Positions 33,001-36,000 of a stretch of DNA of 64,000 bases are shown here, one piece after another (the first letter of the stretch is position 1; each line of letters starts with the position of its first letter). Source of the DNA: a virus (Duplodnaviria; Heunggongvirae; Uroviricota; Caudoviricetes); IMG/VR virus record IMGVR_UViG_2693429637_000011, one strand, 5' to 3'. The position numbers were made by a program.

Positions 33001-36000
33001 GAATATCGGTTTCCGCTCTGAGTTTATCTCTGGCAGCGTTGGTTCTTTCCCGGTCAGCACGAAGTTTTGGTGCTGTTTCAGCCAGAACGTCCAGCGTCAG
33101 CAATGAGCGTTCAATTGACTCGATACGGGCAATATTCCGGTCAAGAGCCTGTTCAGCTTTGAGTATTTTGTCGTACAGAGCAACGCGGGTTTCCACGTCA
33201 GCCGCCTCTTTCAGGTCGGCGAACATTTTTTTCAGTGTTCCTGTTACTGAAAGTGCGCGGGCCCGGGTAAACACCAGTTCATCGGCAAGTTCCATTCCGA
33301 CTGCATCATCTATGAGGTTATCTGCCTCGAGATACTTCGCGTATCCACGGTGTCTGACGGCGTGGGTGTTACGCTGAGAAAAAGCATTTGAAGGTGGCAA
33401 AAGTCTGGAACCACGAGTCCGTTTCGTTTCTGCCAAATTTGCGCATTTTTCATCACAACCATCATCGCCTGAAGGCTCGTCATGACTGGAGTTGCCGTCA
33501 GATTTCTGCGCACTTTTTTGATCATCAATTTGCGCATTTTTCTGCGCACTTTTCTCTGTATTTCTGGGGGAGTGTTTGCGCAGTTTAATGTACCGCCGAG
33601 CCGTGTCATAACTGATATTGTTCTGACGGCACCAGTCCTGAAGCTTTATGCCGGTTTTGACATGTTCGCGTCGAAATGCCTGCTCCAGCTTTTTCCAGTC
33701 CAGCTTTGCCATGTCACCTTCTGACGTTCTCTGTTAAAAACTGATGCACAATGACTGCTGTAAATTTTCAGATTTCACACAGCAGAGCCATGTCTGATTA
33801 ATGTTTAACCTTATTTAGGTTATATCCGCTTCATTCCACTACAGCACCAGATAGGCTGCCTCGCGGATAAATGCCAAAGTCTCCTGATATAGAAACCCGT
33901 CGCCACATCGAGCGCTGATCAACATTTGTATATTCACTGCGACAGAAAGAATTTATTTTATTGAATAGTTAGAAATACAGAATTGCATGCTTTATAAGCA
34001 TTGACGCACACTTCATTTTTAGCAATATATTCTGTTCTCATAGACGATCAGCCCTGCATGCACTGCCGGACACCGTCGGCAATTTTACAGACCTAAGAGG
34101 CAATACCAAAAAGCTAACGCGCTTTATCAAGACTTGAACAACCAACCAATAAAAAAAGCACCAGTACCGCTACCAATGCCCATTTCGTCGTTGTTCACAG
34201 CATTCTGTGTACCCACTGTATTTCGCGTCATATCACCACGTCAGACAATCCTTAAGGATTACATAAGATTTACGCATAATAATGCCCATTTTCAACACAG
34301 ACAAGGGAATTTATATGTTAAATCAAACGCTAACAAAATCTCTTCTTATATTTTTACTTGTCATAATCGTTTCTGTATCCATCATATACATTGTAAGAAC
34401 TCCAGTCAGACTTGATGTGAACGATGTCACTGAGATTAACCAGAAACATCCCATTATTTTTCTCATCCGGCATGGGGAAAGATGCGATCGCTCCCAAAGA
34501 ATATGTCTTTCAGCACATGAGGGAATCACAGTAAACGGAGCTAACAAAGCTCAACAATATGGAGATAAATTCAGAAGAATGTTTCCATACTACAGTCTCT
34601 ATTCTACAGACACACTCCGAACAATGCAGACAGCCACTTTTTTTTCGGGAGGTAAGACAGCAACTATTCCGGACATATCGACATGTGATGATAACGCAGT
34701 AAATAATATCCTTAAAATATCAAAATCAGATCATGTTACTGTGATTTTCACACATAATCACTGTCTGTCCAGAATTGCAAAAAAAATGAATGGATGGAGA
34801 TTTAAACCTGATTATATGGGCACACTGGTTCTGCATCGGGAAAATCACAATCTGATTCTCGACGGACATTTAAAACCAAACGAGCTTACCCAGTGATCCA
34901 TTTGTTGATAATGCACTGGCATTGATTCAGGTTATATCTCTCCTCATAAAAAAGGCCAGCGATTGAGCTGGCTCTGTTAATCGAGGCATTGCATCCTGAT
35001 GTACTCCTGCAGGTAGTTAACCTGCGCGGTTATCTTGTCGATTCCACTTCGGAGACGGTAATAATTGAGTTCAGCATCTGCTGTAAGTCCTGGGCTTTCT
35101 CCATCGCCCATGCCGCTGGCTCCGGTCGTTGACTTTGCACAGGTGGCGGCGACTTGCAGGCGCTTACGCCCAGCAGAAACATCAGCACGGAGACTTTCAA
35201 TAGTCGCGTTAGCATCAGCAAGCTCCCTGGTGTATCTGGCATCGAGTGCAGCAACATCACGCTGGCGCTGCTGTATGTCAGCAATGGTGGCGTTCGCCTG
35301 GCTGAGTTTTGTCTTCGCATCATCTCGCTGCTCTTTGTAGGTGATGGCGTTATCACGGTAATGGTCTGTTGCCAGCCACAGCGATCCACAACCAAGCAGC
35401 AGGACAATAAGCACGCCATACAGCACACGATTCATATCACCACCAACGGATTGCCCAGACCAGAACAGCAATTGCCACAATACGAATGGCAAAAGCTGCC
35501 GCTCTTGTTAAATCCAGACTTGCTGGCGTCTCCACCTCAATGCCTTTCATAATGGACAACCTCAGAAAGAATCTTTTATACTTCCTCACAGGGAAAGAAC
35601 CTCCCTACCCATAATTTCTCCCTTGCCTTATTCAAGGTCAGAAACACAAAACCCCGCTTGCTGCCAACAAACGGGGTTTTTACTTTTACTCACTTAAATT
35701 TTGCCAGTTCGCAGGATTTCGTGTTATCCGTTCGCGTTGGTCAACGGCATTTTTCAGCAGAATATTCTGCTTATCTGTCGATACTCCAGCACGCCAGCGC
35801 GCTCTCCTGGTCACGCCGCGATACCTGCCCGTAACAGTTATTTGAGCGGTTCCGACAGTCCCTGCCGCCGTCATATATCCATCGGCGGATTTCAGCACAT
35901 GCACCTTTCCGGTCTCCTGCGTTCAGTTTCCGGTAAAACGTTGAGGTGAAGCATTTCGAAGGCCCGATGTTGTACGGACAGAATGACGCGATGCCCGCTT

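Follow-up and report, generated by a model that had tools for sequence, protein, structure and literature searches.

A prophage-borne Ais-family histidine phosphatase gene with a putative PmrA/BasR-type promoter in the lysis-terminase interval of a lambdoid prophage

Prophages are well known to convert the lipopolysaccharide (LPS) of their hosts at the level of the O-antigen, which prophage genes of the gtr and oac type glucosylate and acetylate in the lysogen. To our knowledge, prophage conversion of inner-core phosphate is not well known. Among chromosomally encoded enzymes, PmrG removes phosphate from heptose II in the LPS core (PMC8129183, citing Nishino 2006). Here we describe an Ais/PmrG-like phosphatase gene carried by a lambdoid Escherichia coli prophage of the Caudoviricetes (IMG/VR record IMGVR_UViG_2693429637_000011), of which a stretch of 64,000 nucleotides (nt), hereafter the window, was analyzed. 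The reading we favor, to which we assign a probability of roughly 0.6, is that the gene is a moron under host control and that its product, a periplasmic phosphatase tethered to the membrane, would act on LPS core phosphate. The coding sequence and the parts of it that carry this reading are as follows.

34315..34896, + strand: coding sequence of the Ais-family histidine phosphatase, 193 amino acids (aa), as indicated by family models, the start chosen by the Prokaryotic Genome Annotation Pipeline (PGAP) and paralog alignment
34339-34395, + strand: hydrophobic N-terminal helix, residues 9-27, within the phosphatase coding sequence
34468-34494, + strand: RHGERCDRS motif, residues 52-60, within the phosphatase coding sequence
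34747-34764, + strand: FTHNHC motif, residues 145-150, within the phosphatase coding sequence

The protein passed the NCBIfam model for LPS core heptose(II)-phosphate phosphatase (NF011945) with 201.9 bits against a cutoff of 142 and scored 28.7 bits against Pfam His_Phos_1 (PF00300; cutoff 21.7). An earlier note on this DNA had described it as colinear with Escherichia coli Ais and had quoted two motifs, IIFLIRHGERCDRS and IFTHNHCLS. Both motifs were found in the phosphatase open reading frame (ORF), and alignment with the chromosomal protein bears out the colinearity (BLASTP against K-12 Ais: 43% identity over 158 aa, E = 7e-44). The 'PmrG' equivalog model NF052369 proved uninformative: the window protein scored 113 against a cutoff of 170, but K-12 Ais also fails it (145.8). 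Across 21-30 family members, R52, H53, E55, R56, C57, D58, R59, S60, C64, H147 and C150 are invariant and R102 and H149 nearly so, and position 54 is glycine or, in some chromosomal Ais/PmrG sequences, alanine. The loss of catalytic His and Arg residues that would have spoken against an Ais-type enzyme is thus not seen, H53 and R52 being invariant and R102 nearly so.

Structural comparison leads to the same assignment. In a family profile search, the RHGE and RTIQTA motifs of fructose-2,6-bisphosphatase align with RHGE and RTMQTA (R102), and THNH (H147) lies in a weakly aligned segment with a domain score of 1.2 bits, opposite the AHAS motif of Sts-type phosphatases. The AlphaFold2 model (predicted local distance difference test 89.9, predicted template modeling score 0.83) begins with a long helix (residues 2-27), after which comes an alpha/beta domain. 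In the PDB, the top 50 Foldseek matches are histidine phosphatases, among them RosC, phosphoserine phosphatase, PGAM5 and SixA (best E 4e-8), and also include Nudix proteins with a fused histidine-phosphatase domain. The predicted fold is that of a branch-1 histidine phosphatase. PDB searches with the single sequence and then with the family profile returned no solved Ais/PmrG structure; the single-protein sequence search yielded nothing relevant, and the family profile was needed. The family model, the conserved catalytic residues and the fold agree with the Ais-type histidine phosphatase proposed earlier, and the protein is almost certainly an active member of that family.

The N-terminal hydrophobic stretch comprises 19 uncharged residues between K8 and R28, and by inspection no small-x-small motif follows at its end; in the paralogs, positive charges precede the helix. 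As no obvious signal-peptidase site is seen, the signal anchor suggested in the earlier note is plausible. The catalytic domain contains four cysteines (C57, C64, C124 and C150), three of them invariant. The 19-residue stretch without an evident cleavage motif and these cysteines together suggest a catalytic domain that probably resides in the periplasm, tethered to the inner membrane by an uncleaved N-terminal helix.

The gene lies in a slot delimited by two phage genes and marked by a breakdown of homology with a related phage.

34977..35492, - strand: Rz-type spanin gene (Pfam Phage_lysis, 9e-38), last gene of the lysis cassette and one flank of the slot
32897..33712, - strand: small terminase subunit gene (terS), named in identical annotated copies, the other flank of the slot
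33867..34983, no strand assigned: variable low-GC cassette, delimited by the homology breakpoints against phage P13374
34955..34972, no strand assigned: GC-rich hairpin GCCAGC-N6-GCTGGC between the convergent phosphatase gene and Rz, with a T-run on the - strand

The phage genes on either side all read on the - strand, with lysozyme and holin on the Rz side (Pfam) and the large terminase on the terS side (identical annotated copies), and the phosphatase gene is on the + strand. The ORF map confirms an intact gene between Rz and terS, on the opposite strand and in AT-rich DNA: guanine-plus-cytosine (GC) content is 0.37-0.41 over 33750-34950 versus ~0.52-0.55 further out on either side. P13374, the Shiga toxin (Stx) 2a phage of O104:H4, has a terminase and an Rz related to those of the window. 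Its homology to the window ends at 33866 and restarts at 34984, and a Rha-like gene occupies the slot in that phage, so that the slot is variable among relatives. Paralogs of the phosphatase gene occupy the same Rz-terminase slot, again on the opposite strand, in four other lambdoid prophages (67-81% DNA and 55-76% protein identity to the window gene) that differ in endolysins (M15 peptidase, GH108) and terminases; the gene family thus recurs in five prophage lineages.

Opposite orientation, low GC content, polymorphism of the slot and recurrence in it are features of a moron, to which a promoter and a terminator predicted from sequence can be added, and we regard the moron status of the gene as highly likely. 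The placement at the position of lambda bor that the earlier note proposed is supported by the orientation, the low-GC island, the promoter-like element, the Rha-like gene in P13374 and the paralogs in four prophages. Because of its orientation, phage late transcription cannot drive the phosphatase gene. The hairpin scores as an Rz terminator, owing to the T-run on the - strand, and probably also ends the + strand transcript.

What would drive the gene instead is suggested by the sequence immediately upstream, which had not been described in the earlier note.

34251..34267, + strand: PmrA/BasR-box-like direct repeat CTTAAG-gatta-CATAAG in place of a -35 element, recognized by phylogenetic footprint and published consensus
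34278..34283, + strand: -10 hexamer AATAAT, 10 nt downstream of the box, recognized by the footprint and the arnB/eptA layout

In the published PmrA box, a pair of hexamers, each containing TTAA and spaced by 5 bp, stands where the -35 element would otherwise be, and base-specific contacts are made to TAA (PMC3973317, PMC10570014). In an unsupervised MAFFT alignment of the 220 nt upstream of six diverged paralogs (mean column identity 48%), the invariant columns were TTAA at 34252-34255, TAA at 34264-34266, the A, A and T of the hexamer 34278-34283 and the start codon, the rest being scattered single positions. When the alignment of the five lineages was anchored on the box, conservation reached 4.3/5 in either half-site and 4.2/5 in the -10 hexamer, compared with 2.6-2.8/5 in the flanks and the spacer between the half-sites and 3.4/5 in the 10-nt stretch preceding the -10. 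The distance from box to start codon is 47-54 nt in all prophage lineages, and the C311 prophage carries a perfect repeat, CTTAAG-N5-CTTAAG. The same spacing is found in K-12 upstream of arnB (CTTAAG-gttaa-GTTAAT, 10 nt, TAAAAT) and eptA (CTTAAG-gttgg-CTTAAT, 10 nt, GAGCAT). No ordinary sigma-70 promoter was detected on the upstream + strand, where the would-be -35 position reads AGGATT. From this layout, transcription is inferred to start near 34290.

Chromosomal ais orthologs have only the box shared between ais and arnB, 147-192 nt upstream, and the phage promoter is not a simple copy of the ais promoter. In a copy from Salmonella enterica (L135 5604-6001) the box is missing, sequence that matches the stretch beyond the -10 is retained, and 68 nt separate the Ais-like start codon from the end of a transposase gene upstream. 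An insertion sequence probably removed the box from this copy, and the locus may represent a natural promoter replacement. Taken together, the footprint and the shared architecture make control of the phosphatase gene by PmrA/BasR likely.

The position of the promoter elements also bears on the start codon, for which two further features are relevant.

34282..34314, + strand: in-frame upstream extension giving a 204-aa ORF, probably untranslated
34303..34308, + strand: Shine-Dalgarno-like AAGGGA, 6 nt before the ATG at 34315, from the sequence

The gene had previously been placed at 34282-34896 with a product of 193 aa. The ORF and the product of that length exist, but 34282 opens the maximal ORF of 204 aa (stop codon 34894-34896), and the 193-aa product begins at the second ATG, at 34315, which is also the PGAP start in identical copies. 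The paralogs L007, L008, L009 and L004 align from this ATG, AGGA-like sequences lie at the same distance from their start codons, and the in-frame upstream ATG is missing in L008 and L009. The ATG at 34282 falls within the putative -10 element and upstream of the predicted transcription start, which would leave it outside the transcript, in agreement with the 193-aa product. Since the extension overlaps both the -10 element and the predicted transcription start and is unconserved in the paralogs, it is probably untranslated, the real start most probably being the ATG at 34315.

The gene is under purifying selection, with a ratio of nonsynonymous to synonymous substitution rates (dN/dS) of 0.17-0.25 at dS of 0.7-1.0 against the prophage paralogs. 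Near-identical copies occur in 43 of 5426 complete E. coli genomes, in every one of which the ORF is intact; these include O104:H4 strains, among them the outbreak isolates 2011C-3493 and C227-11. Phage GER2 (MG710528; L002 6616-7197) likewise has all 193 codons of the ORF intact, at 99.5% identity; the GenBank record of GER2 annotates just the last 273 nt of the gene. IMG/VR holds 22 viral contigs with the gene or its paralogs, a rescan with the family alignment returning the same 22, and GER2 is the only carrier in INPHARED. PHROGs has no family for the phosphatase.

A gene adjoining the phosphatase in the cassette, likewise absent from the earlier note, has evidently decayed.

34054..34215, - strand: remnant of a 60-aa lipoprotein gene (phrog_7528) with an LLVGC lipobox, interrupted by three in-frame stop codons

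This remnant is divergent from the phosphatase gene and encodes three cysteines in the mature part. The three stops are present in the window and all near-identical copies, including those of O104:H4, and the gene is intact in prophages L008, L009 and L025. A pseudogene in the same cassette, and AT-rich DNA that could be silenced by H-NS, would fit a phosphatase gene that is itself a silent or decaying passenger with no current function. Such a passenger would hardly be expected to keep its ORF intact in 43 complete genomes, show dN/dS of ~0.2 with synonymous sites near saturation, and retain invariant catalytic residues and conserved promoter elements, and we consider this explanation very improbable. 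Some other candidates in this interval were dismissed. A 34-aa ORF at 34127-34231 on the - strand was set aside, as the frame of the lipoprotein remnant is the conserved frame in that stretch, and a terminator-like hairpin at 34156-34181 on the - strand lies within the glycine-rich part of a small ORF. A direct repeat, ATTYAGGTTATATC, occurs at 33813-33826 and 34925-34938 (13/14 identical), on either side of the low-GC island; its copies do not match the P13374 breakpoints at 33866 and 34984 in position, and it was treated as a possible chance match. An Rfam scan of 33500-35200 gave no match.

Beyond the five prophage lineages, the family is widespread on mobile DNA, and its distribution is where alternatives to a core-phosphate function have to be weighed. 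Around 1440 plasmids, most of them conjugative, encode a homolog. In the IncI-type plasmid pHU590 (L006 5878-6462) the homolog is 'traG' and stands immediately after the PilV shufflon, the rci recombinase and traF. O104:H4 therefore has three Ais-type genes, carried by the chromosome, the prophage and the plasmid pESBL. Members of the prophage clade also adjoin adhesin loci on mobile DNA, namely AIDA-I, CS1-type fimbriae in Salmonella, and chaperone-usher fimbriae with an EAL-domain gene. A more distant paralog type (P0036) occurs with an EAL-domain gene and a SPATE (serine protease autotransporter of Enterobacteriaceae) gene on plasmid-sized contigs. A neighbor-joining tree of the catalytic domain groups prophage and adhesin-island proteins in one clade, with chromosomal Ais/PmrG, TraG and the P0036 group all outside it. 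A scan of species-representative genomes placed the family in Enterobacteriaceae alone, apart from more distant relatives in Pseudomonas; its matches in Enterobacteriaceae were all chromosomal Ais-like genes, and it added no phage copies.

The separate clade, the family members located by CS1-type fimbriae, by chaperone-usher fimbriae with an EAL-domain gene, on a SPATE plasmid island and by AIDA-I, and the IncI traG placed right after the PilV shufflon could all be accommodated if the same fold had taken on another job. The enzyme would then act on a different periplasmic phospho-substrate (another LPS phosphate, pyrophosphoethanolamine or lipid A phosphate) or would support adhesin or pilus display or expression. 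Its catalytic and cysteine motifs are, however, identical to those of Ais, it passes the Ais-type NCBIfam model, and a PmrA-type promoter suits LPS remodeling. The source name 'transcriptional activator AfrS', borne by one truncated and frameshifted homolog (P0066), may be a pointer toward adhesin expression. P0066 is a frameshifted copy of the ~55%-identical paralog found in a prophage (L010) of enterotoxigenic E. coli; AfrR of the AF/R1 pilus operon is an AraC-type regulator. On balance, we consider such a change of job unlikely.

Two observations on neighboring genes in these loci are recorded here for their own sake. In two subclades, Ais-like genes of adhesin and virulence islands repeatedly have an EAL-domain gene directly upstream, and the two genes may form a conserved pair.

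L141 5014-6585: EAL-domain and Ais-like gene locus
L138 4464-6582: EAL-domain and Ais-like gene locus
L005 5366-7492: EAL-domain and Ais-like gene locus

In the prophage L010, a gene for an AraC-family regulator (9209-10060, - strand) lies between Q and the lysis genes.

A core-phosphate edit might also serve the phage rather than the host, by masking a receptor or excluding superinfection, so that rival phages, the phage's own progeny, colicins or the IncI pilus could not attach. The position, shared with other lambdoid lysogenic-conversion genes, and the recurrence in five prophage lineages are in keeping with such a role, as is the homolog that conjugative IncI plasmids carry beside their pilus adhesin genes; IncI pilus adhesins bind the LPS core. 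Weighed against this, a stress-inducible PmrA-type promoter is ill-suited to constitutive exclusion, PADLOC returned no match for the phosphatase or for the lipoprotein, and Stx-type short-tailed phages generally use BamA, not the LPS core, as receptor. In addition, conjugation did not require TraG in a transposon screen of pESBL, the O104:H4 plasmid (PMC4288162). Overall, receptor masking appears somewhat less probable still than a changed job of the fold.

A broader and more tentative reading, on the unlikely side in our estimate, would join these observations: enterobacterial mobile elements, that is, lambdoid prophages, IncI plasmids (by the PilV shufflon) and adhesin islands, might have in common a dedicated clade of Ais-like phosphatases, tethered to the membrane, whose editing of LPS core charge would benefit the element itself, the prophage versions having captured a PmrA/BasR promoter. 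The benefit could lie in masking receptors for phages, pili or colicins, or in better adhesin display, and the metal and acid sensor of the host would decide the timing of the edit.

Returning to the host-regulated core phosphatase that we favor, several points weigh against it. A search for the composite pattern of box and -10 gave a single match in the 64-kb window and no match in 100 shuffles, which overstates the significance, the pattern having been derived from the same sequences. The second half-site, CATAAG, departs from the YTTAAK consensus at one position; in a functional box from Klebsiella this half-site reads CCTAAG (PMC3973317, PMC10570014). The box alone is not rare when one mismatch is allowed, with 5 found versus 2.8 expected in the window. 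The promoter argument therefore rests mainly on the phylogenetic footprint and the match in architecture. The host chromosome already has its own ais elsewhere, to which the prophage gene is a paralog and not an ortholog, and the added benefit of a second gene is questionable. Other members of the prophage clade adjoin adhesin loci, not phages. Finally, the substrate could differ from that of Ais, given 43% identity and a separate clade.

If the favored reading is correct, the moron was inserted into the Rz-to-terS slot of an stx-negative, Stx-phage-like (Sepvirinae-type) lambdoid prophage, and in the resident prophage it would stay silent unless BasS/BasR (PmrB/PmrA) is activated by Fe3+, Al3+ or mild acid. 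Phosphorylated BasR would then recruit RNA polymerase to the box-type promoter, which has no -35 element. The product would be anchored in the inner membrane and expose its catalytic domain to the periplasm, where a phosphate monoester would be hydrolyzed by the phospho-enzyme mechanism of the superfamily, via His53. By homology to PmrG, the substrate would be the heptose II phosphate of the LPS inner core, an identification for which we see about even odds. The outcome would be a less anionic core and a lower negative surface charge. The earlier note had raised possible effects on cationic-peptide resistance and on adsorption of other phages. The former is doubtful, because deletion of pmrG in PmrA-constitutive E. 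coli left polymyxin B resistance unchanged (PMC8129183); for the same reason, an effect on metal tolerance or on a receptor is more plausible than one on cationic peptides.

The identity of the gene is already known, having been named by PGAP in RefSeq genomes. In the searchable literature, no paper was found that deals with a prophage-borne Ais, its recurrence in the lysis-terminase slot, a PmrA-type promoter preceding it, the accession of this protein or a PmrA-regulated moron. What is new is the presence of paralogs in this slot in four other prophages, together with the conserved layout of a PmrA/BasR-type box and -10. If the enzyme is active, lysogens, including the O104:H4 outbreak lineage, would gain a mobile capacity to lower their surface charge under iron, aluminum or acid stress, and the PmrA-type promoter would offer a concrete case for the wiring of a horizontally acquired gene into a host regulon. 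Judging from the association of the clade with adhesin and pilus loci, removal of core phosphate may play a broader part in the biology of the cell surface. Were the dedicated clade real, the gene would be a rare moron plugged directly into a host two-component regulon; if it merely duplicates chromosomal ais, its importance is minor.

Elsewhere in the window, a 2783-aa polyvalent protein with LPD38, LPD5, LPD1 and MuF_C domains is encoded at 4654-13005 on the - strand, as in Stx-type short-tailed phages. Downstream of the Q antiterminator there are two NanS-p-like esterase paralogs (DUF1737, SASA and DUF6645 domains) with a gene for a transposase-type integrase core (rve) between them. The ORFs of this NanS-p-like esterase, rve and Q region are the following.

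37193-39103, - strand: ORF of the esterase/rve/Q region
39494-40564, - strand: ORF of the esterase/rve/Q region
41454-43307, - strand: ORF of the esterase/rve/Q region
44612-45145, - strand: ORF of the esterase/rve/Q region

The 1.3-kb gap between Q and the esterase, the usual site of stx, contains no ORF of at least 150 aa, and the prophage is therefore an stx-negative relative of Stx phages. No tRNA genes were found in the window.

Among described systems close to it, the window protein shares with chromosomal Ais (E. coli b2252) and Salmonella PmrG the NF011945 subfamily and the length class, the RHxERCDRS, RTxQxA and FTHNHC motifs, the conserved cysteines, an N-terminal hydrophobic segment of putative export type and the association with a PmrA-type box. 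It differs from Ais in its N-terminus, which has 19 uncharged residues without an A-x-A-like site, whereas Ais has a shorter core and a signal peptide ending THA/AW. It also has a proximal box of its own, 47 nt before the start codon, whereas ais uses the shared ais-arnB box. Its location in a prophage between Rz and terS, and not by the arn (pmrHFIJKLM) operon, sets it apart from both chromosomal genes.

With lambda bor and other lambdoid morons the gene has in common the slot, the orientation opposite to the late operon, the organization as an autonomous unit, the atypical composition and the presence/absence polymorphism. It has no sequence relation to Bor (Pfam detects only His_Phos_1), encodes an enzyme and not an outer-membrane lipoprotein, and has a promoter that looks activator-dependent and not constitutive. 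IncI TraG of the R64/pESBL type is likewise an Ais-family phosphatase on a mobile element, with 294 bits on NF011945 and the same motifs, but shares only ~37% identity, lies in the tra region after the shufflon and lacks a PmrA box. Like the gtr and oac conversion genes, the phosphatase gene would be a prophage accessory gene that edits the LPS of the lysogen; it has no sequence relation to them, its target would be inner-core phosphate, and its control appears to be tied to a two-component system of the host.

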